From assembly GCA_963748815.1 (NCBI GenBank), contig CAVVKJ010000005.1, forward strand, positions 32,001 to 96,000: a stretch of DNA of 64,000 nucleotides, written 5' to 3'. Each line of letters starts with the position of its first letter. Position 1 is the first letter of the stretch. Of the stretch, positions 44,740 through 60,809 are shown one piece after another. The notes below the pieces were generated by a model that worked only from the letters and a program-made list of their open reading frames with translations, had not been told where the DNA came from and searched no databases. Position numbers and translations under genes: made by a program. Source of the DNA: an uncultured Gemmatimonadales bacterium. GTDB taxonomy: Bacteria > Gemmatimonadota > Gemmatimonadetes > Gemmatimonadales > GWC2-71-9.

Positions 44740-45806
44740 TCTCGCTCGCGCTGGCGGCCCTCGTGCTGACCTCGCAGGATACGACACCGAAGTCGGCTGT
44801 GGCCTTCGGGGCGTTCATCGACACCTACTTCGCCTGGGACTTCGGCCAGCCGGACGCCTTCGACCGGCCCTTCACCACCCAGCCGGCGCGGCACGACGAG
44901 TTCAATGTGAACCTGGCCTTTCTCGAGGCGAAACTGGCCGGTGAAAAGGTCCGCGGGCGCGTGGCGCTGCAGGCCGGCACGTCGGTGCAGGCCAACTACG
45001 CCGGCGAACCCAACGTCGGGAGCGTCAGCGGGGACGACCTCGCGCGCATCATCCAGGAGGCCTGGGTGGGCGTGCGGGTGTCGCCGAAGCTCTGGGTGGA
45101 CGGCGGCATCTACTTCTCGCCCATCGGGTGGGAGAGTTTCATTTCCTGGGACAACCCGACCTACACCCGCTCCCTGCTGGCGGAGTACACGCCCTATTTC
45201 GTGACCGGCGCCAAGGTGACGTGGGCCGCCTCGTCCAAGGTGACGGCGCAGTTCCACGTGGTGAACGGCTGGCAAATCGTGTCGGAAAACAACCCCGACA
45301 AATCGTTCATCGCCCGGGTGGACTGGCAGGCCACGCCGGCGCTGGCCCTGGCGTACGCGTTCTACGCGGGCAACGAGCAGCTCGACACGCTGCCGGCCCG
45401 TACCCGGTACTACAACCAGCTGCTGGCCAAGGTGGCGGCCGGGCACGGCTGGGATTTCTGGGGGACGTTCGACGTCGGGGCGCAGACGGTTCCCGATGCG
45501 TCCACCCAGACCTGGTACGGCGCGGTGCTCATCGGCCGGAAGGCGCTCTCGAAGAAGGTGGCCGTGGTCGGCCGGGTGGAGGGGCACTCCGACCGGGATC
45601 AGGTGTTAATCTTCACCGGCACCCCGGACGGCTTCCGGACGATCGGCGGTTCGATCGGTGTCGACGTGCAACCCGAGGAGTACGTGAAGTGGCGGACGGA
45701 ATTGCGCGGGTTTTCCTCGTCGGACCCGGTCTGGCCGGATCAGGGCGCCCCTGCCGGATCGGAGACGGGTGGGTTCATCGTCACCTCGCTCTCGCTTCGG
45801 TTCTGA
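44736..45806 (+). CDS. Putative outer-membrane beta-barrel porin within the kdp operon
   Basis: Signal peptide, amphipathic strands, terminal Phe (LSLRF); coupled to kdpC by ATGA. Confidence 0.75.
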   Translation: MISLALAALVLTSQDTTPKSAVAFGAFIDTYFAWDFGQPDAFDRPFTTQPARHDEFNVNLAFLEAKLAGEKVRGRVALQAGTSVQANYAGEPNVGSVSGDDLARIIQEAWVGVRVSPKLWVDGGIYFSPIGWESFISWDNPTYTRSLLAEYTPYFVTGAKVTWAASSKVTAQFHVVNGWQIVSENNPDKSFIARVDWQATPALALAYAFYAGNEQLDTLPARTRYYNQLLAKVAAGHGWDFWGTFDVGAQTVPDASTQTWYGAVLIGRKALSKKVAVVGRVEGHSDRDQVLIFTGTPDGFRTIGGSIGVDVQPEEYVKWRTELRGFSSSDPVWPDQGAPAGSETGGFIVTSLSLRF

Positions 45807-45834
45807 TGTTCTTCAACTCCTGCGGCGGCGACGC

Positions 45835-48537
45835 ATGACGGGAACGCGCCCCGATCCCGACGCGCTGCTGGCCCGTGTTCAGCAGGAAGAGAGCCGCTCC
45901 CGACGGGGGCGGCTCAAGGTGTTTGTGGGCGCCTCGCCCGGGGTGGGGAAGACCTTCAGCATGCTGGAGGCGGCGCGCGCCGCACGGCTCGGCGGGCAGA
46001 ATGTCCTCGTCGGCGTGGTGGAGACCCACGGTCGGCGCGAGACCGCCGCGCTGGTGGAAGGGCTCGACGTGCTGCCGCGGAAAGTGTTCACCCACCGGGG
46101 TACCAACCTCGAAGAGTTCGATCTCGACACCGCGCTCGCCCGCCGGCCCGATCTGATCCTGATGGATGAGATGGCGCACTCCAACGCGCCGGGCGCGCGG
46201 CATGCGAAGCGCTACCAGGACATCGACGAGCTGCTGCGCGCCGGCATCCACGTCTTCACGACGCTCAACGTCCAGCACCTCGAGAGCCTCAACGACGTCG
46301 TGGCTCAGATCACCGGCGTGACCGTGCGCGAGACCGTGCCGGATGCCGTCTTGGACGAGGCTGACGAGATCGAACTGGTGGACGTGACGCCGGAGGTGCT
46401 GGAACAGCGGCTCCGCGAGGGCAAGGTGTACCTCCCGGAGCAGGCCCAACGGGCACTCGATCGCTTCTTCCGGCGCGGCAACCTGATCGCGCTCCGCGAG
46501 CTGGCGCTCCGCCGCACGGCGGAACGGGTGGACGAGCAGATGCGCGGCTATCGCGCCTCGGCCGGGATCGCGGAACCGTGGGCGGCGGCCGAGCGATTAC
46601 TGGTGTGCGTGTCCCCGTCCGAACGAAGCCTCCGCCTGGTACGGAGCGCTCGGCGCCTGGCCGGGCTGCTTCGGGCGCCCTGGACGGCGCTCTATGTCGA
46701 GCTGCCCCGCCACGCGACCATGCCGGCCCGAAGCCGCGAAGCGGCGCAGGAGGCGCTGCGCCTGGCGGAGGAATTGGGTGGCACCGCCGTGGCAGTACCG
46801 GGCCACGATGCCGCGGAGGAGGTCCTCGCCTACGCCCGCAGCCACAATGCGACGCGCATCATGGTCGGTCGCTCGAGGCGAGGTTGGTTGGGTCGGTGGT
46901 TCCCGATGTCCGTGGCGGGCCGTCTGGTGCGCGGTGCGGAGGGGATGCACGTCTGGGTCGGCGCCGACGACGACCAGGGCACCGAGGAGGAACGCCGGCC
47001 AACGGGCGCGCTCACCATCGCCCCGGTGCGAGACTACCTTGGCGCGACGGTGATCGTCGCGTTGATGACCGCCCTGGCCCTGCCGTTCCATGGCACGCTG
47101 GCCGAGATCGACGCCGCCATGCTCTACCTGCTCGCGGTCGTCATCACCGCCGCGCGTTATGGGCGAGGCCCCTCGGTGCTGGCCGGCCTCCTCTCGGTGG
47201 CCGTGTTCGACATCTCGTTCGTTCAGCCCTACGGGACCTTCGCCGTGACCGACGTGCGATACCTGCTCACTTTCGTGATGATGCTGGTCGTGGCGCTGGT
47301 CATGGGTGGCTTGACGAACCGCGTGCGCGAGCAGGCCAGCGTGGCACGGCTCCGCGAGCGTCGGGCATCCACGCTCTACGCGGTCAGCCGGGACCTAGCC
47401 GGCGCGCGGACCCGGCCCGAGCTCGCCCGGGTGACGCTGCGCCACCTGCAGGATCTCTTCGGTGGCTCGGTCATGCTCATCCTGCCGGACGTGGAAGGAG
47501 GTCTCGGTGTGGTGGCCGAGATGCCGCCGCAGGACGGGGACCGGCGGGACCTCGGTGTGGCGAAATGGGTGTTCGAGCATGGGGAGTGGGCGGGGCGGAG
47601 CACCCAGACGCTCCCGGCGGCCGATGCGGTCTATGTGCCACTGGCGACGCCCGACCGGGTGCTGGGCGTCGTGGGGATGCGCCCGGAGCCCCCCGATCGA
47701 CTCGCTGATCCCTCGCAGCGCCACCTGCTCGAATCCCTGCTGGGCCAGGCCGCCGTGGCGCTCGAACGCACGAAGCTGGCGGAGGAGAAGCGGGTGGTGC
47801 ATCTCGAGTTCGAGGCGGAGCAGCTGCGCACCTCGCTGCTCAGCTCGCTCTCGCACGACCTGCGCACCCCGCTGGCTGGCATCGAGGGCGCGGCGAGCAG
47901 CCTCGCCGCGGACGACGGTCGGCTCACGGGCCCGACGCGACGCGAACTCGCGCAGACTATTGTGGACGAGTCGCGACGGATGACCCGGCTGGTGGCGAAC
48001 CTGCTGGACATGGTACGGGTCGAGAGCGGGGCGCTGGCGGTGCACCGGGGCTGGCATGTGCTCGAGGAGGTGGTGGGCGTGGCGCTGCTCCGCGCCGGGG
48101 AACGGCTCGCCGGGCGCCCGGTCACCACCGATCTTCCTGCCACGCTCCCGCTGGTCCCCATCGACGACGTCCTGATTGAGCAGGTGCTGATCAATCTCCT
48201 GGAGAACGCCGCCAAGTACACGCCGGCCGGCAGTCCCATCGAGATCAGCGCCAGCGCGCGGCGCAGCGAAGTGCTCGTGACGGTGGCCGACCGCGGCCCG
48301 GGCGTCCCGACCGAGGAATCCGAGAAGATCTTCGAGAAATTCCACCGGGCGGCGCGGGGGGCGGGCGGTGTGGGCCTCGGCCTCGCCATCTGCCGAGGCA
48401 TCATCAAGGCGCACGGCGGCCGGCTCTGGGTGGACGCCCGGGAGGGCGGCGGCGCGGCATTCCGCTTTACGCTCCCGATCATCGGGACCCCACCCGACTT
48501 CGAGCGGGAGCACGGGGAACTCGAGGCGGCGGGATGA
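45835..48537 (+). CDS. kdpD: Sensor histidine kinase KdpD
   Basis: GASPGVGKT, ETHGR, NVQHLESLND, USP domain, 4 TM, GAF, SHDLRTPL, NLLENA, GLGLAIC. Confidence 0.97.
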   Translation: MTGTRPDPDALLARVQQEESRSRRGRLKVFVGASPGVGKTFSMLEAARAARLGGQNVLVGVVETHGRRETAALVEGLDVLPRKVFTHRGTNLEEFDLDTALARRPDLILMDEMAHSNAPGARHAKRYQDIDELLRAGIHVFTTLNVQHLESLNDVVAQITGVTVRETVPDAVLDEADEIELVDVTPEVLEQRLREGKVYLPEQAQRALDRFFRRGNLIALRELALRRTAERVDEQMRGYRASAGIAEPWAAAERLLVCVSPSERSLRLVRSARRLAGLLRAPWTALYVELPRHATMPARSREAAQEALRLAEELGGTAVAVPGHDAAEEVLAYARSHNATRIMVGRSRRGWLGRWFPMSVAGRLVRGAEGMHVWVGADDDQGTEEERRPTGALTIAPVRDYLGATVIVALMTALALPFHGTLAEIDAAMLYLLAVVITAARYGRGPSVLAGLLSVAVFDISFVQPYGTFAVTDVRYLLTFVMMLVVALVMGGLTNRVREQASVARLRERRASTLYAVSRDLAGARTRPELARVTLRHLQDLFGGSVMLILPDVEGGLGVVAEMPPQDGDRRDLGVAKWVFEHGEWAGRSTQTLPAADAVYVPLATPDRVLGVVGMRPEPPDRLADPSQRHLLESLLGQAAVALERTKLAEEKRVVHLEFEAEQLRTSLLSSLSHDLRTPLAGIEGAASSLAADDGRLTGPTRRELAQTIVDESRRMTRLVANLLDMVRVESGALAVHRGWHVLEEVVGVALLRAGERLAGRPVTTDLPATLPLVPIDDVLIEQVLINLLENAAKYTPAGSPIEISASARRSEVLVTVADRGPGVPTEESEKIFEKFHRAARGAGGVGLGLAICRGIIKAHGGRLWVDAREGGGAAFRFTLPIIGTPPDFEREHGELEAAG

Positions 48538-49235
48538 GCCAGAACGGCCCGGTGGTGCTGCTGATCGAGGACGAGGTGCCGATGCGGCGGTTCCTCCGCG
48601 TGGCGCTCGCCTCGGAGTCGTACCGGCTGGTCGAAGCCGGCACGGCTCGTGACGGGTTGGCGGAAGCCGCCAGCCGGAATCCCGATCTGATCCTGCTCGA
48701 CCTCGGCCTGCCCGACGCAGACGGCATCGACGTGACCCGCCGGCTCCGGGAGTGGTCAACCCGGCCGATCATCGTGCTCTCGGCCCGCGGGCAGGAGCGC
48801 GACAAGATCGATGCCCTCGACGCCGGAGCCGACGACTATCTCACCAAGCCGTTCAGCGTACCGGAATTGCTCGCGCGCATGCGTGTCGCCCTGCGGCATG
48901 CCGCCCGCGGCCCCTCCAGTGCGGAGGAGCCGGTGTTCACGGCAGGCCAGCTCTCGATCGATCGGGCCCGGCGCATCGTGACGGTCCGCGGCCAGGCGGT
49001 GCACCTCACGCCGACCGAGTACCGGCTCCTGCTCGCGCTGGCGAAGCATGCGGGTCGGGTGCTCACGCATCGACATCTCCTGCGCGAAGTCTGGGGCCCG
49101 GGCCGCATCGGGCAGGATCACTATCTGCGGGTGTACATGGCACAATTGCGCGCCAAGATCGAGCGCGACCCGGCGAGGCCCGAATACCTGCGGACGGAGC
49201 CGGGCGTGGGGTATCGGATGATGGAGGGCGACTAG
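48534..49235 (+). CDS. kdpE: Response regulator KdpE
   Basis: LLDLGLPD, GADDYLTKPF, LRVYMAQLRAKIE..TEPGVGYR. Confidence 0.96.
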   Translation: MSQNGPVVLLIEDEVPMRRFLRVALASESYRLVEAGTARDGLAEAASRNPDLILLDLGLPDADGIDVTRRLREWSTRPIIVLSARGQERDKIDALDAGADDYLTKPFSVPELLARMRVALRHAARGPSSAEEPVFTAGQLSIDRARRIVTVRGQAVHLTPTEYRLLLALAKHAGRVLTHRHLLREVWGPGRIGQDHYLRVYMAQLRAKIERDPARPEYLRTEPGVGYRMMEGD

Positions 49236-49338
49236 GGCGGGGCAGCGGGGCAGGGAGGCAGCAAATGAAACGGGCGCACCAAGGTGCGCCCGTCTGCATT
49301 CCTGCCCCACGGCCCCGCCGCCTCCCGGCCCCGCCTAG
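49233..49338. terminator. Bidirectional hairpin between kdpE and a convergent gene
   Basis: Core ACGGGCGCACC-AA-GGTGCGCCCGT flanked by inverted GCGGGGCA-type tracts. Confidence 0.65.
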
Positions 49339-50604
49339 TTGGGGGCGTGCACCCCCGGCCCGCCGTAGTCCCGATCCCCACCGAGCGTCGGCCCGCGGAA
49401 CTCGAAGGAGTTCGCATTGTCCATCCTGGCCACGACCTGGCGCACCGCGCCGGGGAATGCGGTGGTCCGCCCGTTCCGCCCGAACGGATCGGTATACCAT
49501 ACCTCGGGGCCGTCCGCGTTCCGGATGCGGTTGCCGTTGATGTCCACCTGCCGCCGTACGCCGTTGAAGGGGGAGCGGGGGTCGTCGTAGGCCAGGGACG
49601 TCAACGTGCCGTTGGCTGTCGCCTGGTCGCAGAGCCACCCCTTGGCGCGATCACCGTTGGTCTCGGTCGCGAAGCACATGTCCACCGTGCGCCCGGTGAT
49701 GCCCGGGCAGCGTCGGGTCGTAGAACCGGCTCGGATAGAACACCTGATAGTAGGGGTCGATGCTTGCCAGGGTCTGCCCCGAGACGGTGCGGAGGCTCGC
49801 GCTGATCTGCCAGCTCTCGTGGAGTGCGGAGCCGAAACTGGAGGACTGGCCCGGCGGCACCAGCATGTGACGCTCGATGCACGCCCGGTCAGGGACGGTC
49901 CGCTTTCCGCCGCCACTCGGGCTGTTGAGCGGCGTCGGCGCGCCGACCGGCACGTGCACCTCGTGGTCACACGACTCGACCATCTCTCCCGGCACGCCGA
50001 TGGCGGCCATGACGGTCATGCCGATCCGGGTGCCGCCGGTGCAATCCACCTGGTAGACCAGCTCGTGCAGGTTGTTGGTGAACGCATCCTTGGAGTGCGT
50101 CCCCTGGTGCAGCTTGGTGAGGACATCGCACTTGATCTCCAGGACGGAGCTGGCCACGCCGTCGCCGAGGTCGAAGGGGACGTCGTTCTCCCACTCGATC
50201 TTGTGGCCGACGTGATCCTCGTTGCGGACGCCGGTGGGGTCCCAGATGGCCAGCTGCTCGTTGGCGTAGCCAAAGGGGATCGGCCCGACGCGCCGGTAGA
50301 GGTCGGACCCGCGCGGGTCGCGCCCGTGCTCGTGCCCGAAGTGGCATCCGGTGGCAGGATCCACTGGGGGGTGCCAGGTCGGGTAGAGCTTCCCGTCGGG
50401 ACCCACCGTCGAGTACTGGTTGTGAATCTCGGCGGTACAGTCGTCGTTCGGGCCGGGTTGCCAGAGATTGTAGGCCACGCTCACGCCGGTGGCGACCGGG
50501 GTGGACGGCGCACCGGCGTCCTCGGCACAGCCCGCCAGGGCCGTCACCGAGAGGAGCGCGGCCGCGAGGGTTCCAACGGGGAAGGGCAGGGTGGGGTGTC
50601 GCAT
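49335..50604 (-). CDS. His/Cys-rich hypothetical lipoprotein; +1 frameshift near 49705
   Basis: Lipobox LAGC and motifs TWHPP..CHFGHEHG, DHVGHK, HQGTH. The C-terminus (..PRSPFNG..GVHAPN) is in the next frame. Confidence 0.7.
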
Positions 50605-50615
50605 GACTCCTCCGC

Positions 50616-51206
50616 TCAATGAATCACCAGCGCCAGGCCAAACTGGAATGAGGAGACGCTGGCGTCTCCCGCGATGATCGATGTGGTGACGGTGTTGTCT
50701 TCGGTGTGCTCGAACTGGAGGTCACCAGACAGGGTGTACTGGTAGTTGAAGTACGGGTTGAGGGAGTAGTTCTTCCCGACCCGCCACTCATATCCCAGGC
50801 CGATGATACCGCCCGGCTGGGTCGTGGAGATGACATCCACCGAGTCGCTCGCGCTGTACCCGGTGATGCCGAACCCGCCCTTCACATAGGCGCCGCGTGC
50901 AGGCCAGGGATACCAGAGCGCGATGGCGTTGGCGCTCCAGGAGCGGCGGGTTGCGACGTCCTGCGAGTTGGTCCATCCCGCGAGTTCGGCGCCGAGGAGC
51001 CAGGATTTTGACAGCACCCCGCCGGCGCGGATCGCCGCGGAGAGGTCGGTCCCGCTCTGGTCGTTGCAGATTTCGCAGTGGAGCTGGCTCGAGCCCGCGC
51101 CGAACCCGAACCCGTACCAGAAACCTTGGCGGGTGTTGGGATGCTGGGCGGTGACGGGCGTCACGAAGACCGCCAGCGCCACGGCGGTGAGCAGCAATCG
51201 GTTCAT
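50616..51206 (-). CDS. Small outer-membrane beta-barrel protein
   Basis: Signal peptide, about 8 amphipathic strands, CEIC loop. Confidence 0.7.
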   Translation of the reverse strand: MNRLLLTAVALAVFVTPVTAQHPNTRQGFWYGFGFGAGSSQLHCEICNDQSGTDLSAAIRAGGVLSKSWLLGAELAGWTNSQDVATRRSWSANAIALWYPWPARGAYVKGGFGITGYSASDSVDVISTTQPGGIIGLGYEWRVGKNYSLNPYFNYQYTLSGDLQFEHTEDNTVTTSIIAGDASVSSFQFGLALVIH

Positions 51207-51402
51207 GAATGGAATCCTCCTGGGAGCGTGCTACCGTGCAGGTTGGGGGCCAGTGGAGGGCGGGGCCGCGGGGCAGGGGGGCAGGGGGGCAGGGACGGCT
51301 AAGGTGATGTGCGGTGGGGTGTTCCGGGGCCCTATCGATTCGTCAGCCACCATTACCGATCGAGGCGACAGGAATTGCACAGGCGAAGCGCGAAATTGCA
51401 TG

Positions 51403-51435
51403 AAAAAACGCGGGAGGGCCGAGGCCCGCCCGCGT
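51403..51435 (-). terminator. Intrinsic terminator of the metal-uptake operon
   Basis: Minus strand ACGCGGGCGGGCC-TC-GGCCCTCCCGCG followed by TTTTTT. Confidence 0.8.
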
Positions 51436-51467
51436 GTGGGGTCGCACGCAAAGCACGCGCGGATGGC

Positions 51468-52286
51468 CTATGCCGATTTGGGCACGAACCGCCGGAGCAG
51501 GAACGCCAGCAGGAGCATGAGGCCGAAGGCGCAGACGATGACCGGTCCCGTGGGGAGGTCGTACCGGAACGACACCGCGATGCCGGCGGCCGATGCGAGG
51601 ATGCCGGTGAGCCAGGAGATGATGGCCAGGTACTTCTGGTTGGAGCTGAACTGGAACGCCGCCGCCGCCGGCACCACGAGGAACGAGAAGACCAGCAGCA
51701 CGCCGGCGATCGGCACCGACAGCGTGATCACGACGCCGAAGCTCAGGTAAAACCAGAAATCCCACCAGCGGATGCTCCACCCGTTGGCCAGGGCGGTGTC
51801 CGGTTCGAACGAAATGGTCAGGAACCGCTTCCGCAGCACGAAGTGGAAGACGCCAAGCGCAGCGTACACCGCCGCCATCTTGACGATGGCCGGCCAGGTG
51901 ACCCAGAGCAGGCTCCCCACCAGGATGTCCTTGATCGCCTCGCCGCCTCGCGGCACCCGGTCGGCCACGAGAATGGCTGCCGCCGAGGCGACGACGTACA
52001 CGATGCCGATGATCGCTTCCTGCGGGACCCGCCCCTTCTCGTGGGTGCGGGTCAGCGCAAAGAGGGCCGCGCCGAGGGTCGTGAACCCGAGCGCATAGAC
52101 GTAGGACATCGTCGAACCGGGCTCGGAGCCGGCAAAGATGGCCACCGTGGAACCGAGCGCCGCCATCTGGGCGAGCGAGAGGTCCACGAAGATGACCTCG
52201 CGCGCGATGATGTGGAGCCCGAGGTAGGAGTGGATGGCCACGATCACCATGCAGGCCGCCAGCGGCGGCAGGATCAGGTCGAGCAT
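51468..52286 (-). CDS. Metal ABC transporter permease (ZnuB/MntB family)
   Basis: HSYLGLH..IFVDLSLAQ, EAIIG, ILVGSLLWV, GVLLVFSFLVVPA, DLPTGP. Confidence 0.88.
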   Translation of the reverse strand: MLDLILPPLAACMVIVAIHSYLGLHIIAREVIFVDLSLAQMAALGSTVAIFAGSEPGSTMSYVYALGFTTLGAALFALTRTHEKGRVPQEAIIGIVYVVASAAAILVADRVPRGGEAIKDILVGSLLWVTWPAIVKMAAVYAALGVFHFVLRKRFLTISFEPDTALANGWSIRWWDFWFYLSFGVVITLSVPIAGVLLVFSFLVVPAAAAFQFSSNQKYLAIISWLTGILASAAGIAVSFRYDLPTGPVIVCAFGLMLLLAFLLRRFVPKSA

Positions 52287-52290
52287 CGGC

Positions 52291-53316
52291 TCATCCCTTC
52301 TTTCGGAAAGCGATGGCGAGGCCGTTCACCCAGCTGTCCACCAGCTCGAAGTAACTCGTGACGCCCGGGGCACCGAAAGTGTTCTCGGGGACGACGACCG
52401 CGGTGGCGCCGGTCTTCGCCGCCACCTGGTCGATCTGCGACTTGGGAAAGTAGTTGGAGGCAAACAGTGCCGGAATCTGCCGCTCCTTCATCAGGGCAAT
52501 GACCTCCTCGACGTGCCCCGGCGTCGGCGGAATCCCGGGCTTCGCCTCCACGTAGGCCACGCAGGTCACCTGGAAGCGAACGCTGAAGTACGCCCACTCC
52601 TTGTGGTAGCAGGCCATCTCCTTGCCGCGGAAATCGCTGCCCGCCCTCAGCCAGCCGCCGAGCTGGTCGGCGAGCGGCTTGCCGTGGAGCATCGTCCTGG
52701 CGATGAACCCGTCGAACTGGCCCGACTTGAGGAGGCTGAACGCCGTGGCCGGCGTCAGCACGTCCACCAGCTCCTTGCCGATGGTGGCCTCGAGGACCTT
52801 TCGCTCGAACTCGAGCTCCCGTGCCCGGTAGTAGTCGGCATTGGCCGGATCCACCTTCGTCAGCCCGGCGAGGATGTTCCGCCCGATGATGATCCCGTTC
52901 ACCGGGTCCGTGTGAATGTGCGGATTGCCCTCGGCGTGGATGTCGCCGCCGGCGCGGCTGAGCGAGGTGGGGACCTCCAGCAGCGTGATGCCGGTGTAGG
53001 CCGCGACGTATCCCGGTCCCCCCGACATGATCTTGCGGTTCCCCGCGCGGTCGAGGAGGGTGGGCACCCAGAGCTCGAGGTCGAGGCCGGTGGTCACGAA
53101 GAGATCGGCGTCGCGGAGCAGCGCCACGAAGCTTGGCTTCGGCTGGACGAAGTGCGGATCCTCGTCGCCCTGGGCGATCGAGGCGACCGTGCCGTGGTCG
53201 CCCACGATTTCCCGGGCGATGGATCCATAGGTGGTCAGGCTGGTGACGACCTTCACCTGGGCGGCGGGTGGTGCAGCCCAGAGGGTGGTGAGGAACAACA
53301 GCGCCGTGGAGAGCAT
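52291..53316 (-). CDS. Metal ABC substrate-binding protein (ZnuA/TroA family)
   Basis: VVTS, DPHF, GLDLE, GNPHIHTDP, YHKEWAYF, PGIPPTPGH. Confidence 0.9.
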   Translation of the reverse strand: MLSTALLFLTTLWAAPPAAQVKVVTSLTTYGSIAREIVGDHGTVASIAQGDEDPHFVQPKPSFVALLRDADLFVTTGLDLELWVPTLLDRAGNRKIMSGGPGYVAAYTGITLLEVPTSLSRAGGDIHAEGNPHIHTDPVNGIIIGRNILAGLTKVDPANADYYRARELEFERKVLEATIGKELVDVLTPATAFSLLKSGQFDGFIARTMLHGKPLADQLGGWLRAGSDFRGKEMACYHKEWAYFSVRFQVTCVAYVEAKPGIPPTPGHVEEVIALMKERQIPALFASNYFPKSQIDQVAAKTGATAVVVPENTFGAPGVTSYFELVDSWVNGLAIAFRKKG

Positions 53317-53317
53317 G

Positions 53318-54712
53318 TCAGTAAGTCTCGTGTTTGTGGGGACCCATCGCCCAGACGACCTGGAGTGTCAGGTTGTCGAGCGATCCGGTGGAGTCGAGAT
53401 AGTTGCGAAAGGCCTGGAGCCGAAGGTACACGAACTCGCTCTGCCACCAGGTGGCGACGGCGGTGGCGCGCCAGGTTGCGTCGTCGGGGCCCACGGGCGC
53501 CTCGACGTAGTCGTACCGGCCGCCCACCACCCAGCGCTTGCTGAGGCGCCAGCTGAGGTCGGAGTACATCCCGTACCGGGTGGTCGTCGGCTCGTCGCCG
53601 ACCCGCTGGAGCCGATACCCCTCGGTGCGCCAGGTGATGTCCTGGCGAGTGCCGGCGTTCGGAGGCCGGTAGGTGAAGCGCAGGTCGGCGCCGAGAAGGT
53701 TGCTGGTCAGGCCGGAATCGCTGTTCTGCGCGCCGACACCCGTGAAGCCGATTTCCATATACGTACTGCGCCCGAGTTGCCAGAAGTTCTGCAGCCGCCC
53801 GAGCAGGGCGGGCTGGAGGCTTCCGTCGTTCAGCGGCTCACTCTCGACGGCCGCGCCCTGCAGGAAGATCTCGGATGTTCCCTTGGCGACGGAGACCGGC
53901 AGCGTGGTGTACAGGCTGACGCCGGTGCCGGCCAGCCCGTCCTCGCCCAGGAACGCCTGGTAGACGAGGGGATAGTTGGTCTCCGGCAACGCGTGGGGGT
54001 GCCACCGGTTGAGTTCACCCACGGACATGCGGAACTTGCCGAGGTCCGCGCGGACCTTGCCTGGGAGCCCGGTCCAGTAGATGTACGCCTCCTCGACGCC
54101 GATTTCCTCCGCACCCCAGGTGAGGAAGATCTTCGTGGCGGAATACGGGTCGAGCGCCGCCTGCAGCGAGACCTCCACCTCCGCCAGCTGGAGGTCGAGC
54201 CCCTGCTGGCCGGTCTCGGCGGAGAACTGCACGTCACCAGTGGCGCTGATTTCGGGGTTCATCGACGACTGATTGCCTTGCCGACTCACGAACTGGGTCG
54301 GCGCGGCGGGCACGGAATCGGGGGTGACGGGGACGCCACCGGCCGCGGCGGCGCTGTCGGCTGCCGCGCGAATGGCGGCCAGCGGGTCCGCCGCCGCATC
54401 GGCCGCCGGCGGAGTCGCCGCGAGATCACACCGTGCGGCCACGGTGGCGTTGACGCGAGCGGTGAGCGACGCGACGGTGAGCGCCAGCGAGTCCACTGCG
54501 GCGTTGCCGGTCTTTTTCGGCGGGGCCGGTGGAGGCAGCGGGGCTGGGGGGCAGAATCCGGCGTCGAGTGAATCGAGCCGGGCCGTGAGCATTTGAACTG
54601 CCCGCTGCAGCGAGTCCACCGTGGCGGTGGGGACTCCCTGCGCTGCGGCGCGGGGCGCGATGCCCGCGGCAAAAGTGGCGATCACGACAGCCACGCGGAA
54701 TACCAACCGCAT
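53318..54712 (-). CDS. Outer-membrane porin-like protein associated with metal uptake
   Basis: Signal peptide, N-terminal coiled coil, NPEIS, E.E.SL..LDPY, EEAY, NRWHPH, C-terminal MGPHKHETY. Start ATG 54712 after GAGGAGG (54724 is an alternative). Confidence 0.75.
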   Translation of the reverse strand: MRLVFRVAVVIATFAAGIAPRAAAQGVPTATVDSLQRAVQMLTARLDSLDAGFCPPAPLPPPAPPKKTGNAAVDSLALTVASLTARVNATVAARCDLAATPPAADAAADPLAAIRAAADSAAAAGGVPVTPDSVPAAPTQFVSRQGNQSSMNPEISATGDVQFSAETGQQGLDLQLAEVEVSLQAALDPYSATKIFLTWGAEEIGVEEAYIYWTGLPGKVRADLGKFRMSVGELNRWHPHALPETNYPLVYQAFLGEDGLAGTGVSLYTTLPVSVAKGTSEIFLQGAAVESEPLNDGSLQPALLGRLQNFWQLGRSTYMEIGFTGVGAQNSDSGLTSNLLGADLRFTYRPPNAGTRQDITWRTEGYRLQRVGDEPTTTRYGMYSDLSWRLSKRWVVGGRYDYVEAPVGPDDATWRATAVATWWQSEFVYLRLQAFRNYLDSTGSLDNLTLQVVWAMGPHKHETY

Positions 54713-54715
54713 AGG

Positions 54716-54786
54716 CCTCCTCATTCCTGTTGGAAGGAGCCATTGTCCACGGCTCCTGATGTCAGTGGCAGGACGATCCGAGGAGG
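54716..54786 (-). promoter_or_regulatory. Anti-SD/SD hairpin able to sequester the porin ribosome-binding site
   Basis: mRNA CCUCCUC (54786-54780) is complementary to GAGGAGG (54722-54716). UCCUG/CAGGA and the inner stem AGGAGCC/GGCUCCU nest inside. Confidence 0.7.
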
Positions 54787-54787
54787 G

Positions 54788-55123
54788 TCAGGCGGGTGGG
54801 GCGCGGGAATGCTGGTGGGAACGTGGTGTTGCGTCGGCAGGCGCCATCGGGGCGGCGATCAGCGCCCGCAGCGATTCCGGTGGCGCCGTGCGGACGATCT
54901 CGATGCTGCCGAGCGCCTCGCGCTGCGCCACGACCGGCTGCGCCAGGGTGCAGCGGTCGGCGTGATGCTGGCCGCCGTGCGCCTCGACGTGCGTAACGCC
55001 GGCGCAGGGATCCTGCCCAGCCACGTGGAACATGGCGCCATCGGCCAGGGGCACACCCAAGGCGCCGAGCAGGAAGAGCCCGGAGAGGAGCGAGGCGCGG
55101 AGGCGGACGGTGAGGCGGATCAC
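54788..55123 (-). CDS. His-rich exported leader protein ending in the RAPP arrest motif (DUF2946/CruR/CutF-like architecture)
   Basis: Basic plus hydrophobic N-terminus, HVEAHGGQHHADRC, Pro/Ala-rich linker, C-terminal SRAPPA*. Start GTG 55123 is uncertain. Confidence 0.75.
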   Translation of the reverse strand: MIRLTVRLRASLLSGLFLLGALGVPLADGAMFHVAGQDPCAGVTHVEAHGGQHHADRCTLAQPVVAQREALGSIEIVRTAPPESLRALIAAPMAPADATPRSHQHSRAPPA

Positions 55124-55186
55124 AGGCTGGAATGTGCCGGGTCGGCGCGCGCGGGACAAGGCGCGCCGACCCGGCGTCGGTTCAGG

Positions 55187-55783
55187 TCAGTGCGCGTGGC
55201 CGCCGACCATCTTCGGCGCGTCTCCCGAGAAGCTGTACCCGTTCTTCGGGCACTTGAGGTCGGGATTGGTCGGGGAAAACACCCCCGCCGGGTTGTTCTT
55301 CCAGAGCCAGACGTGCAGGTCGTAGTGGTGCAGCCCCGACGGCATGATGGGGGGATGCCCTTCCATCGGTCCCTCGAGCTGCTTGCCGAAGACACTCGGC
55401 GGGTTGTCGCCCACGGCGGCGACGGGCGCGAACCACTCCGCGGCCACGAGTTTCAGGTGGTCCCCGTCAGGCTCGTAGATCAGCACCTGCGGCTTCAGCG
55501 GGTCCATCGTCGGGCCGATATTTCCCAGATTCAGGAAGTGCACCCCCATACCGCCCGCCACATAGCTCATCGTGCCCTCGCTGTGCCCCTTTGGAAAATC
55601 GATGCAGGCGACGGTGGAGAGGAAGCCGTCGGCCACCGCCACCATCGGGTCCTGGTACTTGTCGAGGGCGGCACGGGCGCTTGCGAGATCGGGTGCGAGC
55701 GTCGGTTGCCCCTTGGCGGGGGCCTGGGCGTTGGCGACAGACACCGAAGCAACGATCAGGGTGGCAATTGCAGCGAGTTTCAT
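55187..55783 (-). CDS. Secreted hypothetical protein with His/Met motifs
   Basis: Signal peptide; GMGVHFLN, PQVLIYEP, MEGH, HYDLHVWLWKNNPAGVF. Confidence 0.75.
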   Translation of the reverse strand: MKLAAIATLIVASVSVANAQAPAKGQPTLAPDLASARAALDKYQDPMVAVADGFLSTVACIDFPKGHSEGTMSYVAGGMGVHFLNLGNIGPTMDPLKPQVLIYEPDGDHLKLVAAEWFAPVAAVGDNPPSVFGKQLEGPMEGHPPIMPSGLHHYDLHVWLWKNNPAGVFSPTNPDLKCPKNGYSFSGDAPKMVGGHAH

Positions 55784-55895
55784 GGGAGCCTCAGATGGAG
55801 AGTGAGGAATTCTTCAGGCACATCACAGTACCCTCAGCTGTGCAGAAAGCAATACGCGGCGGCCGCGCCCGCCCCTTGCCCGATTCCTCCAGTTA

Positions 55896-55914
55896 TGTAT
55901 ATTCATTGTATACA
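55896..55914. promoter_or_regulatory. Probable MazE autoregulatory operator overlapping the -10 element
   Basis: Palindrome TGTATA-N7-TATACA; candidate promoter TTGCCC-16 nt-TATATT. Confidence 0.6.
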
Positions 55915-55933
55915 CCTCAACTGGACCACCGAA

Positions 55934-56173
55934 TTGCGAACGCATATATCAAAGTGGGGCAACAGTTTAGCCGTCAGACTGCCCAAGCCGTTCATGGATG
56001 AGCTGGGGCTCTGCTCAGGTGCCGAGGTTGACCTCACCCTGAGGGACGGCCGGCTCATCCTGGTGGCTGCGAGCCGGGAATACGCCCTGGAGGAACTGGT
56101 GGAAGGGATCACCCCGGAGAATCGACACCGGGAATCCGACTGGGGACGTCCCAGGGGCCGGGAGGTTTGGTAG
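55934..56173 (+). CDS. mazE: AbrB/MazE family antitoxin
   Basis: TTG start; RTHISKWGNSLAVRLPK..LEELVEGITPENRH..DWG.P.GREVW. Confidence 0.92.
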   Translation: MRTHISKWGNSLAVRLPKPFMDELGLCSGAEVDLTLRDGRLILVAASREYALEELVEGITPENRHRESDWGRPRGREVW

Positions 56174-56487
56174 CGCCGGATCGAGGCGACCTCGTGTGGG
56201 TGAACATCGAGCCGGCCGATGGGGGCGAAGCTTTCCGGCGTCCGGCGCTGGTGGTCTCACCCGCACTCTACAACGCGCGCTCCGGCCTCGCACTGATGTG
56301 CGCCATCGCGCGGCATCCGAAGGGATATCCCTTCGAGGTGGCGCTCCCGGCCGGCCTCGCCGTGGAGGGCGTCGTCCTGGCCGACCACCTGCGGAGCGCC
56401 GACTGGAAGGCCCGTGAGGCCGAGCTGGCCGGGCGGGTGCCCGCCGCCGTCGTCACCGACGTGCTTGCGAAGTTGAAGCCGCTGTAA
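56167..56487 (+). CDS. mazF: MazF/PemK family toxin with a degenerate active site
   Basis: PDRGDLVWV, RRPALVVSP..YN, KGYPFEV, GVVLAD..S.DW.AR; overlaps mazE. Confidence 0.88.
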   Translation: MVAPDRGDLVWVNIEPADGGEAFRRPALVVSPALYNARSGLALMCAIARHPKGYPFEVALPAGLAVEGVVLADHLRSADWKAREAELAGRVPAAVVTDVLAKLKPL

Positions 56488-56531
56488 CAGGTGCGAGGAC
56501 TGAGGACTGAGACGAGGCGGAGGCCCATTCT

Positions 56532-57080
56532 GTGGCAAGTGACAACTTGATCCAACTGACGAACGGCGCGTCGCGGGTCCGCGGGACGTTTCGCGTCAAC
56601 GGCGAGTCGCGTGAGGCGCTCTACAAGCCGCACACCACCCTGCTCGAGCTCCTGCGCGAGGAGCTGCAACTCACCGGCACCAAGCACGGGTGCGAGCTCG
56701 GCGAGTGCGGGGCCTGTACCGTCCTGGTCGACGGGGTGCCGGTGCTCTCCTGCCTGGTGCTGGCACAGGCGGTGGAAGGACAGGCGGTGTCCACGGTCGA
56801 GGGAATGGCCGACGGACCCACGCTGCATCCCCTGCAACAGGCGTTCATCGAACTGGGCGCGGCGCAGTGCGGTTATTGCACGCCGGGCGTCCTCCTCGCC
56901 GCGGAGGCGCTCCTCGTGGAAACCGCCGCCCCCACGCGGGACGACATCAAGCTGGCGCTGTCCGGCAACCTCTGCCGCTGTACCGGCTACATCAAGATCT
57001 ACGAAGCGATTGAGCTGGCCGCGGCGCGCATGCGGGGAGAAGCGGCCGAACCGCGGCGGGAGACGCTGCATGGCTACTAA
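56532..57080 (+). CDS. Xanthine-oxidase-family 2x[2Fe-2S] subunit (HcrC/CoxS-like)
   Basis: GTKHGCELGECGACTV, QCGYCTPG, GNLCRCTGY. Confidence 0.95.
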   Translation: MASDNLIQLTNGASRVRGTFRVNGESREALYKPHTTLLELLREELQLTGTKHGCELGECGACTVLVDGVPVLSCLVLAQAVEGQAVSTVEGMADGPTLHPLQQAFIELGAAQCGYCTPGVLLAAEALLVETAAPTRDDIKLALSGNLCRCTGYIKIYEAIELAAARMRGEAAEPRRETLHGY

Positions 57081-59514
57081 GGAGAAGACCGTGGACCCCG
57101 GCTTTCGCCGGGGTGACAGCCAGGATAGCGCAGCCTACGCGGTCATCGGAACCGCCAGGCCCAAGACCGACGCGCCGGGCAAGGTCGCGGGCCAGACCCT
57201 CTTCGCCGATGACATCGTGCTGCCGCGCATGCTCTGGTCCAAGCTGCTGCGGAGTCCGCACCCGCACGCGCGCATCGCGTCGATCGACACGTCGCGGGCG
57301 CTGGCGCTGCCGGGGGTAGAGGCGATCATCACCGGTGCCGACCTCCCCATCCCCTTCGGCATCCTCCCGGTCAGCCAGGACGAGCATGCGCTGTGCCCTG
57401 ACGTGGTGCGGTTCGTTGGCGATCCTGTGGCCGCGGTGGCGGCCATCGACGAGGAGACGGCGCTGGCCGCCTGCGGGCTGATCGAGGTGACCTACGAGCC
57501 GCTGCCGGTCGTCTCCTCCGTCGATGACGCGGCGGCCATGCCGTCGCCGCAGCTGCACGCATACGCCGACGAGGGCAACTGGCACAAGCTGGTGCACCTG
57601 CAGTTCGGTGAGCTGGAGGAAGGGTTCCGGCGCGCCGACCTGGTGCGGGAAGATCTCTTCTTGTACGAGGGCAACACCCATCTCCCGATGGAGCAGCACG
57701 CCAGTATCGCGCACGCCACCCCCGACGGGCGCGTGACGATCTGGTCCAGCACCCAGACGCCGCACTACCTCCATCGGGCGCTCTCCAAGGTGCTCGAGTT
57801 CGCGCCAGCCCGGATTCGCGTCATCGCCACACCCAATGGCGGCGGCTTCGGCGGCAAGAGCGATCCGTTCAACCACGAAATCGTGGTGGCCAAGCTGAGC
57901 CTCGTGACCGGCCGCCCCGTCAAGATCGGCTTGACCCGAGAGGAAGTGTTCTACTGCCACCGCGGCCGGCACCAGGCGCTGATGAAGATCCGGACCGGGG
58001 TGACACGGGACGGCGCCATCACCGCCATGGACTTCGAGTCGTACCTCGACGGTGGCGCCTACGGGTCGTACGGCGTGGCGTCGCTCTACTACACCGGCGC
58101 GCTGCAGACCGTCACCTACGACGTGCCCACCTACCGGTTCCGTGGCGCGCGGGCCTTTACCAACAAGCCGCCGGGCGGCCCGAAGCGCGGGCATGGCACC
58201 ACGCAGCCACGCTTCGCCGTCGAGGTGCATCTCGACAAGATTGCCGAAGAGCTGAAGGTGGACCCGGCGGAACTCCGGCTTCGGCACCTGGTCAAGCCGA
58301 ACGAGGTCACGGCGAACTGGCTGCAGCTCGGCACCGTCGGGCTGGCAGCCTGCATCGACCAGGTGGTGGATGGCTCGCGCTGGAAGGAGCGTTTCCGGAA
58401 GCTGCCCTACGGGCGCGGTCTTGGGCTCGCCTGCTCCTCCTACATCACCGGCGCGGGGTTACCTATCTACTGGAACGACATGCCGCACTCCGGCGCGCAG
58501 ATCAAGTGCGATCGCGGCGGCGGCGTCACGATCTTCTGCGGTTCCACCGACATCGGCCAGGGTTCCGAGTCGGTGCTCGCCTACGTGACCGCCGAAGTAC
58601 TGGGCATCGAGCCGGCCGACATCAAGGTGGTCACCGCCGACACCGACCTCACCCCGGTGGACCTCGGCAGCTACTCCTCGCGCGTCACGCTCATGACCGG
58701 TCAGGCGGCGATGCAGGCCGCCACCCGGGTGCGCGACCTGATCGCCTCGGCGGTGGCGACGAAGCTCGACGTGCCGACGGACCGCCTGGTCTTCGGCGGG
58801 GGGCGGGTGTTCGACGCGCAGGACCCCGACACCGGGATCACCTTTCGCGAGGCGATCGGCGTCGCGGAGGCAAGGCACGGCACCCTCGGCGCGGTGGGGA
58901 GCTACACGCCGCCACGCTCCCCCGGCCGGTACCGGGGCGCCGGCGTCGGGCCGTCCGCGGCGTACAGCTATTCCGCCGCCGTGGCGGAGGTGGAGGTGGA
59001 TCCTGACACCGGTGTCGTCCGGGTCCCGACCATCTGGATCGGCCACGACATCGGGCAGTGCATCAACCCGGCGCTGGTGATGGGCCAGGTCGAGGGGGGC
59101 GTCTATATGGGCCTCGGTGAGGCGCTGATGGAGGAGATGGCGTACCGCGAGAAACTGGGGCTGGTGCACAAGTGGCCCTCAATGCTCGAATACAAGAGCC
59201 CGACCACGATGGAAATGTGCGATGTCATCACCTACCTGATCGAGGACCCCGATCCCAACGGCCCCTTCGGCGCCAAGGAAGCGGGACAGGGGCCGCTCAA
59301 TCCGGTCATGCCGGCCATCGCGAACGCGATCTACGATGCGGTGGGAGTGCGGATCGACGAGGTGCCGATGAGCGCGCCGAAGGTGCTGAAGGCGATCCAG
59401 GCGAAGCTGAAAGGCAGGGATCCACGCTACGGACCGAGCGGCACGCCGACAGTGCAGTGGCCGGAGCGGACGTACGTCAGGACGCCGGCCCAGGGTGGGA
59501 ACGGGAGGGATTGA
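57070..59514 (+). CDS. Xanthine-oxidase-family molybdopterin subunit (HcrA-like)
   Basis: RSPHPHA, STQTPH, GGGFGGK, DIGQG, GSYSSRVT, GQVEGG, FGAKEAGQG. Start ATG 57070 or GTG 57091. Confidence 0.93.
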   Translation: MATKEKTVDPGFRRGDSQDSAAYAVIGTARPKTDAPGKVAGQTLFADDIVLPRMLWSKLLRSPHPHARIASIDTSRALALPGVEAIITGADLPIPFGILPVSQDEHALCPDVVRFVGDPVAAVAAIDEETALAACGLIEVTYEPLPVVSSVDDAAAMPSPQLHAYADEGNWHKLVHLQFGELEEGFRRADLVREDLFLYEGNTHLPMEQHASIAHATPDGRVTIWSSTQTPHYLHRALSKVLEFAPARIRVIATPNGGGFGGKSDPFNHEIVVAKLSLVTGRPVKIGLTREEVFYCHRGRHQALMKIRTGVTRDGAITAMDFESYLDGGAYGSYGVASLYYTGALQTVTYDVPTYRFRGARAFTNKPPGGPKRGHGTTQPRFAVEVHLDKIAEELKVDPAELRLRHLVKPNEVTANWLQLGTVGLAACIDQVVDGSRWKERFRKLPYGRGLGLACSSYITGAGLPIYWNDMPHSGAQIKCDRGGGVTIFCGSTDIGQGSESVLAYVTAEVLGIEPADIKVVTADTDLTPVDLGSYSSRVTLMTGQAAMQAATRVRDLIASAVATKLDVPTDRLVFGGGRVFDAQDPDTGITFREAIGVAEARHGTLGAVGSYTPPRSPGRYRGAGVGPSAAYSYSAAVAEVEVDPDTGVVRVPTIWIGHDIGQCINPALVMGQVEGGVYMGLGEALMEEMAYREKLGLVHKWPSMLEYKSPTTMEMCDVITYLIEDPDPNGPFGAKEAGQGPLNPVMPAIANAIYDAVGVRIDEVPMSAPKVLKAIQAKLKGRDPRYGPSGTPTVQWPERTYVRTPAQGGNGRD
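57089..57117 (-). repeat. 29-bp REP-like palindrome, copy 3, inside a coding sequence
   Basis: CCGTGGACCCCGGCTTTCGCCGGGGTGAC; one mismatch to copy 2. Confidence 0.9.
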
Positions 59515-59518
59515 GGTG

Positions 59519-59800
59519 TTGGGCCGTTCACCCCTCGACCGGACTGCTCCTTCGGCACTGGAGGTCCACCTGCAGGTGGGCTCCCGGAAAGGCGAGGGAC
59601 CTCACGTGCCTCCGGAACAGCCCGGTCTTCGAGGGTCAAGTAACGTGAGCAATAGAGGCTGCGGGGAGGCCGGCAAGGGGAATGGTCCGGAGGGCAGTCA
59701 GTTCGCGGCCCGCGGGGCGCGACGCACACGCCCCGTACGCGAACTGTCCTGCCCGGAGGACTATCCCGAGCCGGCCAACCAGTCCACTGATCTGGCCCGA
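59519..59800. other. Highly structured intergenic element with two long hairpins and a closing stem (candidate ncRNA or non-autonomous mobile element)
   Basis: Hand-paired stems at 59532-59635 and 59668-59776; closing stem TTGGGCCG/TGGCCCGA. Confidence 0.6.
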
Positions 59801-59819
59801 GGGCCGAGGACCTGACTTC

Positions 59820-60809
59820 ATGCTGAGACTGCCACCACACGAGACTTCGTTTCCGACCTCGATTCGAGAAGCCGTGGCGCAGCGAGTGCGCGCCGGTGCC
59901 GCGGGTGCCTACGTGGCCGGGGGGACCGATCTCTATCCCAACATGAAGCGTCGGCAGCAGGAGCCGACGCGCGTCATCGACGTACGGCGGATTCCAGAAT
60001 TGAACCGGCTCGATGTGGCGGCCGATGGCTCGCTGATGATCGGGGCCGGGGTGACGCTGACGCGATTCATGCGGGACGCACGGGTCCGCGCGGGGTGGCC
60101 GGCGCTGGCGCACGCCGCGAGCGAGATCTCCACACCCCTCCTCCAGAACATGGGCACGGTCGGTGGCAACCTCCTCCTCGACACCCGGTGCAACTACTAC
60201 GATCAAGGCTACGAGTGGCGGAAGGCGATCGACTTCTGCATGAAGAAGGACGGCGACACCTGCTGGGTGGCGCCGTCGAGTCCGCGCTGCTGGGCGGTGC
60301 AGTCGAGCGACCTGGCGCCGGTGATGGTGGCGCTGGACGCGCGGGTCGTGCTGGCCGGCCCCGACGGGGAGCGGACGATTCCCGCGGCCGCGCTCTATCA
60401 CGACGACGGGATCGCGTTCCTGACCAAGCGGGCGGACGAACTGCTGGTGCGGGTCGAGGTGGCCCCGCTCACGGGCGCGCGCGCCAGCTACCGCAAGCTG
60501 CGCCGGCGTGGCGCCTTCGACTTCCCGGTGCTGGGGGTGGCGGCGTGGGCGTCGTTCGATGGGACGGGGCAGGTGACGGGGGCGCGGATCGTCCTCGGTG
60601 CGGTCGGGTCGTACCCGAAGCCGGTACCGGAGGCGGCGACACTCCTCGTCGGGGGCCCCCTGACCGACGAGCAGCTCGACGAGGCAGTGCGGCTGGCTGG
60701 CAAACTCGCCAAGCCGCTCGACAACACCGACTTCACCATCGGATGGCGAAAAGAAATGGCCTCGGTGTTCGTGCGCCGGGCGCTCGAAGCGCTGCGCCCG
60801 GACCGCTGA
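59820..60809 (+). CDS. FAD subunit with extra [4Fe-4S] cluster (HcrB-like)
   Basis: AGGTDL, NMGTVGGNL, C-x15-C-x7-C-x8-C insertion, KLRRRGAFDFP. Confidence 0.92.
   Translation: MLRLPPHETSFPTSIREAVAQRVRAGAAGAYVAGGTDLYPNMKRRQQEPTRVIDVRRIPELNRLDVAADGSLMIGAGVTLTRFMRDARVRAGWPALAHAASEISTPLLQNMGTVGGNLLLDTRCNYYDQGYEWRKAIDFCMKKDGDTCWVAPSSPRCWAVQSSDLAPVMVALDARVVLAGPDGERTIPAAALYHDDGIAFLTKRADELLVRVEVAPLTGARASYRKLRRRGAFDFPVLGVAAWASFDGTGQVTGARIVLGAVGSYPKPVPEAATLLVGGPLTDEQLDEAVRLAGKLAKPLDNTDFTIGWRKEMASVFVRRALEALRPDR

Follow-up and report, generated by a model that had tools for sequence, protein, structure and literature searches.

In the literature that we found, metal-sensing arrest peptides have been demonstrated for copper only. 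CruR (Bp2923) of Bordetella pertussis, a protein of the DUF2946 family (PF11162), carries a CxxC motif at residues 90-93 and the sequence RAPP at residues 139-142 (PMC9426467), and it arrests at RAPP in vitro (PMC12992588). CutF of Rhodobacter capsulatus has a CxxxC motif and a PPP end, stalls when copper is bound, and drives a detoxifying oxidase (PMC9973294; bioRxiv 10.1101/2025.02.05.636593). His-only CutF-like clusters (14 and 17) precede HupE/UreJ and have been proposed to bind nickel or cobalt (PMC9973294). In Caulobacter, a DUF2946 gene stands at the head of the zinc-efflux operon czrCBA (PMC4176598), and DUF2946 has been tied to copper by fitness data (10.1101/072470). Here, we describe a leader gene and the operon behind it in a 64,000-nucleotide (nt) stretch of contig CAVVKJ010000005.1 from an uncultured Gemmatimonadales bacterium (the window, whose positions serve as coordinates throughout). 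A first-pass annotation had proposed that this leader arrests ribosomes and thereby gates a porin-ZnuA-ZnuB operon through an anti-Shine-Dalgarno (anti-SD) sequence.

The leader belongs to a family that is real and well conserved, a variant of the CruR/CutF type, and it is very probably a regulatory arrest leader. By analogy with the copper-sensing CruR and CutF, it is likely a metal switch, with zinc the probable metal. We give about an even chance to the complete explanation, in which the RAPP leader stalls ribosomes at low metal, probably zinc, and so keeps the porin-ZnuA-ZnuB operon on. Gene order, RAPP, the fixed Cys-RAPP distance and the complementarity between the stall region and the Shine-Dalgarno (SD) sequence are read directly from the sequence; the later steps are ones that we infer.

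The leader and its conservation

The leader open reading frame (ORF) runs on the minus strand from a GTG at 55123 to a TGA at 54788 (54788..55123) and encodes a CruR/CutF-like peptide of 111 amino acids that ends in HSRAPPA, with RAPP at 54805-54794. It has a basic and hydrophobic N-terminal helix (residues 4-34; 55022..55114, minus strand), which may serve as a signal peptide or a membrane anchor. The description of an ORF of about 111 codons with a signal or transmembrane N-terminus and a C-terminal RAPPA is therefore borne out. The hydrophobic stretch covers approximately residues 10-27, and the AlphaFold model of the leader consists of a single helix at residues 4-34 with the remainder disordered. 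By analogy with the CruR toeprint (PMC12992588), a ribosome stalled on the RAPP codons (54794..54805, minus strand) is predicted to hold Pro109 (54799-54797) in its P-site. The candidate metal ligands are D28, H33, H45, E47, H54 and C58 (54950..55042, minus strand), the last two forming an H-x3-C motif. C58 stands 48 residues ahead of RAPP, that is, 48 residues lie between C58 and R107.

A porin-based search returned 80 loci, nearly all of them labelled Gemmatimonadota, which together with the window make 81. Eleven were excluded because their upstream DNA is too short, leaving 70 evaluable loci. Counting as leaders those with a hydrophobic start and a RAPP or RSPP end, we found a RAPP-type leader in 67 of the 70, window included, so the RAPP end is conserved in orthologous loci as the first-pass annotation required. 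The three loci without a standard leader have RAPPA behind a frameshift (L004), a leader with RPPP (L024) and a different gene (L020). Two porin loci (L068 and L078) come from bins labelled Saccharibacteria and Acidimicrobiia, for which misbinning or transfer is likely, and leader or porin frames are frameshifted in L004, L072, L005, L012, L052 and L057, by sequencing error or by decay.

We aligned 46 of the 57 non-CxxC leaders, omitting near-duplicates and frameshifted or mis-started rows. Identity to the window leader ranges from 21 to 67%, and the candidate ligands are kept in most of the 46 rows (D28 in 45, H33 in 45, H45 in 37, E47 in 38, H54 in 45 and C58 in all 46). Of the HH-x3-C motif singled out earlier, H54 and C58 thus stand, while the double His does not, H53 being present in 13 of 46. 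The RAPP codons vary synonymously among leaders. A profile of the leader matches 464 clusters at 50% identity; a RAPP, RSPP or RGPP end is present in 145 of the best 150 database matches, and without exception these 145 carry a Cys at a distance of 46-49 residues from it, exactly 48 in 117 of them. When the genome that carries the window leader (G000, 86% complete) was scanned, one of four RAPP candidates had a correctly spaced Cys and an SD-led gene behind it, and this one is the window leader.

The peptide might instead be a small exported metal-binding protein in which RAPP has no regulatory role. Pfam and NCBIfam scans assign the leader to no family, and L024 has RPPP in place of RAPP, as this alternative would allow. 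It is nevertheless highly improbable, given that RAPP is nearly invariant and keeps a fixed spacing to the Cys, that RAPP is avoided elsewhere in proteomes (PMC12992588) and that the mature part is predicted to be disordered.

Among 66 classified orthologues, 55 leaders have H-x3-C and nine have CxxC; 20 of the 55 carry a further Cys just upstream, and the nine have their Cys residues 48 and 45 residues before RAPP. A porin tree, in a quick version of 62 rows from which L005, L057, L061 and the unclassified loci were dropped, requires two changes for CxxC. When profiles of the H-x3-C and CxxC leaders were compared, only the RAPP tail aligned (35 columns, probability 85%). Because the profiles align only there, the case for a common origin of the sensor parts is built on the Cys register together with the shared operon and spacer. 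The window leader reads C58-T-L-A, with no second Cys and hence no CxxC, and at the level of sequence its motif reads as CxxC minus the second Cys.

The leader gene is probably transcribed as a leaderless mRNA. A predicted promoter (TTGTCC-17 nt-CACATT; 55131..55159, minus strand) ends 7 nt 5' of the GTG, and there is no SD sequence. A -10-like hexamer, [TC]ANNNT, is found 5-8 nt before the start codon in 56 of 67 leaders (41 TANNNT and 15 CANNNT, one of the 56, in L045, using an unlikely start), against a background per internal start codon of 0.2% for TANNNT and 3.3% for CANNNT. The position of this hexamer suggests leaderless mRNAs and fixes the GTG start. A consensus promoter and terminator scan found none, the window promoter being below the scanner's threshold, and an Rfam covariance-model scan of positions 49000-57000 gave 0 matches. 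The predicted -35 element is enclosed by a perfect 15-bp GC-rich inverted repeat, 3' of the upstream gene (55136..55175, minus strand), which is a probable 3' hairpin of the upstream mRNA; it has no U-tract, the scanner does not call it a terminator, and its arms are seen in some close relatives only. Upstream lies a minus-strand gene (55187-55783) for a 198-aa exported-looking protein that contains His and Met and has no Pfam or PDB match. Most loci in the clade of the window have this gene 5' of the leader, and loci outside the clade do not.

SD sequestration and the reach of a stalled ribosome

With the first base of the stalled P-site codon numbered +1, the anti-SD CCUCCUC occupies +14 to +20 (54780..54786, minus strand). 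It begins 1 nt after the leader stop codon and is the exact complement of GAGGAGG, the SD of the porin gene (54716..54722, minus strand). The minimum-free-energy (MFE) fold pairs the two around two inner stems (-44.7 kcal/mol), in agreement with the first-pass annotation; its stability is modest (z -1.9; 9 of 200 shuffles are as stable). Both inner stems appear in the window's MFE fold, and only one of them, the GGAGCC/GGCUCC hairpin (54735..54757, minus strand), recurs in the consensus structure of 15 loci, where two of its pairs are changed on both sides.

The pairing is retained in relatives, although not always in the same place. Each position of the +14 to +20 helix is paired in 12-13 of the 13 loci of the window's clade, where the changes are mostly C to U and, the SD being invariant, none affects both sides. 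In a second clade of 21 loci, whose leaders end in RAPP-x-L-R-x-V (the LRxV clade), the codons of the tail themselves form the anti-SD, at +10 to +16. There, +10 to +15 pair in 20-21 of 21 loci, and +16 pairs in 17 of 21, as U-A in 11 and A-U in 6. The covariation looked for between anti-SD and SD is thus seen as U-A/A-U swaps in the LRxV clade and not as two-sided changes in the window's clade. The rare Arg codon CGA (6% of Arg codons in G000) occurs in the tail in 17 of the 21 loci. On the evidence of these alignments, what is conserved is the sequestering of the SD and not the sequence that achieves it, and the position of the helix moves between clades.

Blocking the mRNA up to +15, as a model of a stalled ribosome, lowers the median cost of opening the SD by 3.5 kcal/mol in porin loci (n = 67), by 3.6 in loci with related leaders before receptors (n = 23) and by 2.7 in those before efflux systems (n = 28), against 0.0 in 42 control gene pairs from G000. 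The drop exceeds 3 kcal/mol in 39 of 67 porin loci and in 3 of 42 control pairs. Likewise, the native duplex between stall region and SD is stronger than the average of the swapped duplexes in 55 of 67 loci and in 12 of 13 clusters, two of these clusters being frameshifted members of the window's clade. The statistics for both SD opening and duplex swapping are overstated, since the loci are related and C-rich RAPP codons can pair with any SD.

In what we consider the best explanation, the leaderless mRNA would be translated and the N-terminal helix would engage the translocon. The ribosome would then pause with Pro109 in the P-site, at which point C58 would be 51 residues from the catalytic centre and near the periplasmic exit. 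While paused, it would weaken the anti-SD:SD helix and shield a C-rich tract from Rho, and the porin and importer would be made. Binding of metal by D28, H33, H45, E47, H54 and C58 would fold the emerging chain and pull it free; the ribosome would depart, the anti-SD:SD helix would close, and expression would drop.

The C-rich, G-poor tract, which is rut-like and corresponds to the rut site of CruR, lies before and over RAPP (54794..54853, minus strand). In the 60 nt that end at RAPP, the excess of C over G is greater than 0.2 per nt in 61 of 67 leaders but in only 20 of 1376 control genes; the bias lies partly at synonymous sites (G at fourfold sites 0.25 vs 0.36-0.38), and Rho is encoded in the genome. 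These observations would also suit a transcriptional output by the same mechanism as CruR, in which Rho would be kept off the tract by the stalled ribosome, with the SD helix playing a secondary part. We regard that arrangement as rather unlikely, given that the SD helix is conserved and covaries, that the spacers between leader and porin genes measure 44-107 nt (75 nt in the window) as opposed to 162 bp for CruR, and that the tract arises partly from Pro/Ser/Ala-rich coding. It is compatible with the best explanation and does not exclude it.

The polarity of the switch depends on how far the stalled ribosome reaches. The ribosomal mRNA channel holds 11 nt after +1 (PMC7282821), and toeprints fall at 15-17 nt (PMC7897499). 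In the window, the modelled cost of opening the SD is 11.4 kcal/mol in the free mRNA, 10.6 with a block at +13, 8.3 at +15 and 4.0 at +18. The proposed covering of the anti-SD by a RAPP-stalled ribosome is thus not supported, because the helix starts outside the channel and coverage is marginal. According to this model, the stalled ribosome reaches the window's anti-SD at its edge only, whereas +14 to +18 would enter the channel of a ribosome that terminates two codons further on.

Three observations weigh against the best explanation. The window's helix starts at +14, and its SD stays mostly paired with blocks up to +16. In the window's clade, the SD opens by more than 2 kcal/mol in 4 of 14 loci at +13, in 11 of 14 at +15 and in 12 of 14 at +18, and the clade median of the opening cost at +13 is 10.0 kcal/mol vs 2.5 in the LRxV clade. 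RNAalifold, applied to a MAFFT alignment of the 21-locus LRxV clade, did not recover the anti-SD helix.

Since the anti-SD lies just outside the channel of the stalled ribosome, the switch may be inverted in the window's clade: a stall would leave the helix intact and the operon off, escape followed by termination two codons on would melt the helix and turn the operon on by translational coupling, and metal would prolong the stall. Such a switch would fit a helix that begins two nucleotides past the channel end at +12 (PMC7282821), a terminating ribosome with a channel extending to +18, at which the SD is modelled to open at a cost of only 4.0 kcal/mol, and the one-residue tail and long branch of the window's clade. 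Metal-induced stalling has been described for CutF and would also suit efflux paralogues. Even so, in orthologues with the same transporter the anti-SD falls under the stalled ribosome (19 of 21 loci open with a block at +13), and the toeprints cited above extend beyond the channel. In addition, a terminating ribosome stays on the mRNA only briefly. We consider the inverted switch unlikely, and for the window's clade we lean slightly towards the polarity in which a stall means expression.

Cargo, metal and related leaders

Directly behind the leader is a gene for a 464-aa outer-membrane porin (53318..54712, minus strand, with its ATG at 54712), a predicted OprP/OprO-like beta-barrel that belongs to no Pfam family. 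The model of its C-terminal 310 aa (pLDDT 88) resembles OprP (Foldseek TM 0.73) and Omp32 (0.65), and Porin_O_P is found on 22% of the members of its Atlas neighbour; no match was found among plasmids or PDB sequences. It is followed by genes for a ZnuA-family (cluster A-I) binding protein (52291..53316, minus strand; PF01297, E 4e-45) and a ZnuB-family (ABC-3) permease (51468..52286, minus strand; PF00950, E 6e-33), both over the Pfam cut-off, so that the porin-ZnuA-ZnuB operon recognized at first pass is confirmed. ZnuA and ZnuB are both present in all 66 loci with at least 3 kb of downstream sequence. No ATPase gene follows the permease, and no linked ATPase (ZnuC) was found in any of the 66, two of which have ABC ATPase motifs that are upstream and unlinked. 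Nor was a ZnuC identified in the incomplete G000, where the best of three TIGR03771 matches adjoins a FecCD/BtuC-like permease; G000 encodes one Fur-family gene and one ABC-3 permease. Within the porin, His motifs that are invariant in 30 homologues (R-W-H-x-H and a C-terminal G-P-H-K-H-E-T-Y; 53321-54250) provide candidate metal-binding residues.

Leaders of this family also occur before other cargo. Of 301 genomes of the phylum, 80 match the leader profile (64 of 125 in the family), often with 2-4 copies, and the additional copies stand in front of genes for TonB-dependent receptors and outer-membrane efflux proteins. In searches that started from the cargo, we found leaders before 26 of 27 evaluable loci for ZnuD-like receptors (best PDB match ZnuD) and before 28 of 29 loci for CzcCBA-type efflux systems. 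The pump of locus L118 passes the CusA/CzcA cut-off, and homologues of its CzcB and CzcA are present in 35 of 35 and 31 of 35 efflux loci. We had considered that the extra leaders mark tandem copies of the whole uptake module, which they do not: they head receptors and efflux systems elsewhere, and G000 has one copy. In L113 (G107:C108), porin-ZnuA-ZnuB is followed by two TonB receptors, each with its own RAPP leader. Together with L115, L116, L122 and L124, this locus is one of several metal-uptake clusters in which two or three RAPP leaders occur in series, each heading a receptor or porin.

Metal is quite likely the signal, and we rate the chance that this metal is zinc at slightly better than even. 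Zinc is suggested by the cargo rather than by the leader, namely by the ZnuA and ZnuB matches, by the ZnuD-like receptors, and by the three His and one Glu at the ligand positions of the binding protein (from alignment to 8svc and YfeA), a ligand set that we take to be zinc-type. The earlier suggestion that HH-x3-C implies zinc, nickel or cobalt is not supported, because orthologues with the same cargo use either motif and H-A-D-R-C also heads efflux operons (L139, L147, L149 and L150). As far as these sequences tell, the leader motif names neither metal nor direction.

Several findings run counter to a zinc-released stall. Manganese and iron proteins are among the top matches of the binding protein in NCBIfam and the PDB, all of which are below cut-off. 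The leader motif does not track the cargo, and the ligand motifs of the binding protein do not differ between loci with CxxC and with H-x3-C leaders. Efflux systems carry leaders of this same family, with the same modelled RNA logic, so a single rule of stall release by metal cannot account for uptake and efflux alike; the family must hold both polarities, or else those pumps are not induced by metal excess. Two ways of assigning polarity were examined and set aside. The number of Cys residues gives a trend only (at least two in 25 of 28 efflux leaders vs 10 of 26 receptor leaders), with identical motifs before receptors and efflux systems, and an inverted RNA logic of the efflux leaders is unsupported, 20 of 28 opening at +13.

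A leader found before importers and exporters alike, followed in all three contexts by an outer-membrane protein and with a Cys pair in many members, might monitor export, outer-membrane biogenesis or the periplasmic thiol state, as SecM or ApdP would, instead of metal. This seems quite improbable: the cargo is metal-transport-like in all three contexts, the D/H/H/E/H/C residues are conserved within an otherwise variable and disordered chain, and the window's conserved site has a single Cys. A much broader proposal is that one expanded family of leaderless, single-Cys RAPP leaders with a 48-residue ruler runs much of Gemmatimonadales metal traffic in place of a Zur-type repressor. In this proposal, polarity would be set by the position of the anti-SD relative to the stalled or terminating ribosome, the window's clade would be inverted, and the leader would be the first zinc-sensing arrest peptide. 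Taken as a whole, it is speculative, and we think it improbable.

The surrounding genes are varied. A minus-strand gene for a small outer-membrane beta-barrel protein (50616-51206; PF13505, just under cut-off) lies 3' of ZnuB in part of the clade, followed by a His/Cys-rich lipoprotein-like ORF without a Pfam match (49651-50619, minus strand). On the plus strand are a MazE/MazF-like toxin-antitoxin pair (55916-56487) and, at 45769-49235 and 56532-60809, KdpD/KdpE two-component genes and a three-subunit molybdoenzyme of the xanthine dehydrogenase family.

Comparison with CruR, CutF and the SecM class

The combination of features had been thought undescribed, which overstates its novelty: CruR itself has RAPP, CutF has an SD hairpin, and CutF-like leaders of the His type have been published. 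In searches of the open-access literature, we found no paper that tests a zinc-responsive arrest peptide or describes this H-x3-C family. The available text of the RAPP/RGPP uORF survey of Fujiwara et al. does not mention zinc, ZnuA or Gemmatimonadota (PMC12992588), and the available parts of PMC10783764 and PMC545781 hold nothing on this leader. If the leader responds to zinc, nascent-chain sensing would not be confined to copper. In addition, the responses of CruR and CutF run in opposite directions, which their papers do not explain. The present family offers a natural experiment for studying that difference: the same operon follows H-x3-C, C-x-H-x3-C or CxxC leaders, the anti-SD lies within the stalled ribosome in some loci and just beyond it in others, and the same leader precedes both importers and exporters.

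By analogy, the leader would work like CruR and CutF; by profile and by the lack of CxxC, it is not a DUF2946 member. The DUF2946 profile (PF11162, cut-off 23.7 bits), whose use had been recommended as a check, does not match the window protein at E<=1, and no protein of the genome exceeds its cut-off. Weak matches are found for 11 of 46 relatives (best E 0.024) and for 4 of 9 CxxC orthologues (best 3.6e-5).

The class of small exported-type proteins with RAPP near the C-terminus, to which ApdA and ApdP belong, also accommodates the window leader. Like SecM, ApdA and ApdP, it combines a RAPP/RAGP arrest-type end with a localisation signal, putative in the window leader, and SecM opens an SD hairpin (PMC7897499). 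Unlike it, these three precede sec or yidC genes instead of a porin, SecM senses export, no SD hairpins are predicted for ApdA and ApdP, and the available text describes no metal site for any of the three (PMC7897499). With CutF, the window leader shares a peptide of fewer than 150 residues, putatively exported in the window, a Pro-rich end, a Cys/His site and a stem-loop that shields the next SD. Its 111 residues and 75-nt spacer fall within the published size and spacing rules for CutF-like leaders (PMC9973294); as to the signal-peptide rule, it has a basic and hydrophobic N-terminal helix that is possibly an uncleaved anchor. It differs from CutF in having RAPP, one conserved Cys and importer cargo.

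CruR offers the most detailed parallel. Both leaders are the first gene of a metal-uptake operon, have a signal sequence (putative in the window leader) and a C-terminal RAPP, are poorly structured and include a C>G bubble. Both have 48 residues between the first Cys and the Arg of RAPP (C90-R139 in CruR and C58-R107 in the window; PMC9426467), and for CruR, too, the stall is proposed to mean expression (PMC9426467). The window leader departs from CruR in having H-x3-C with the D/H/H/E residues instead of CxxC, in preceding a porin with ZnuA and ZnuB instead of a copper TonB receptor, and in having a 75-nt spacer with a conserved SD helix on an mRNA that is probably leaderless.

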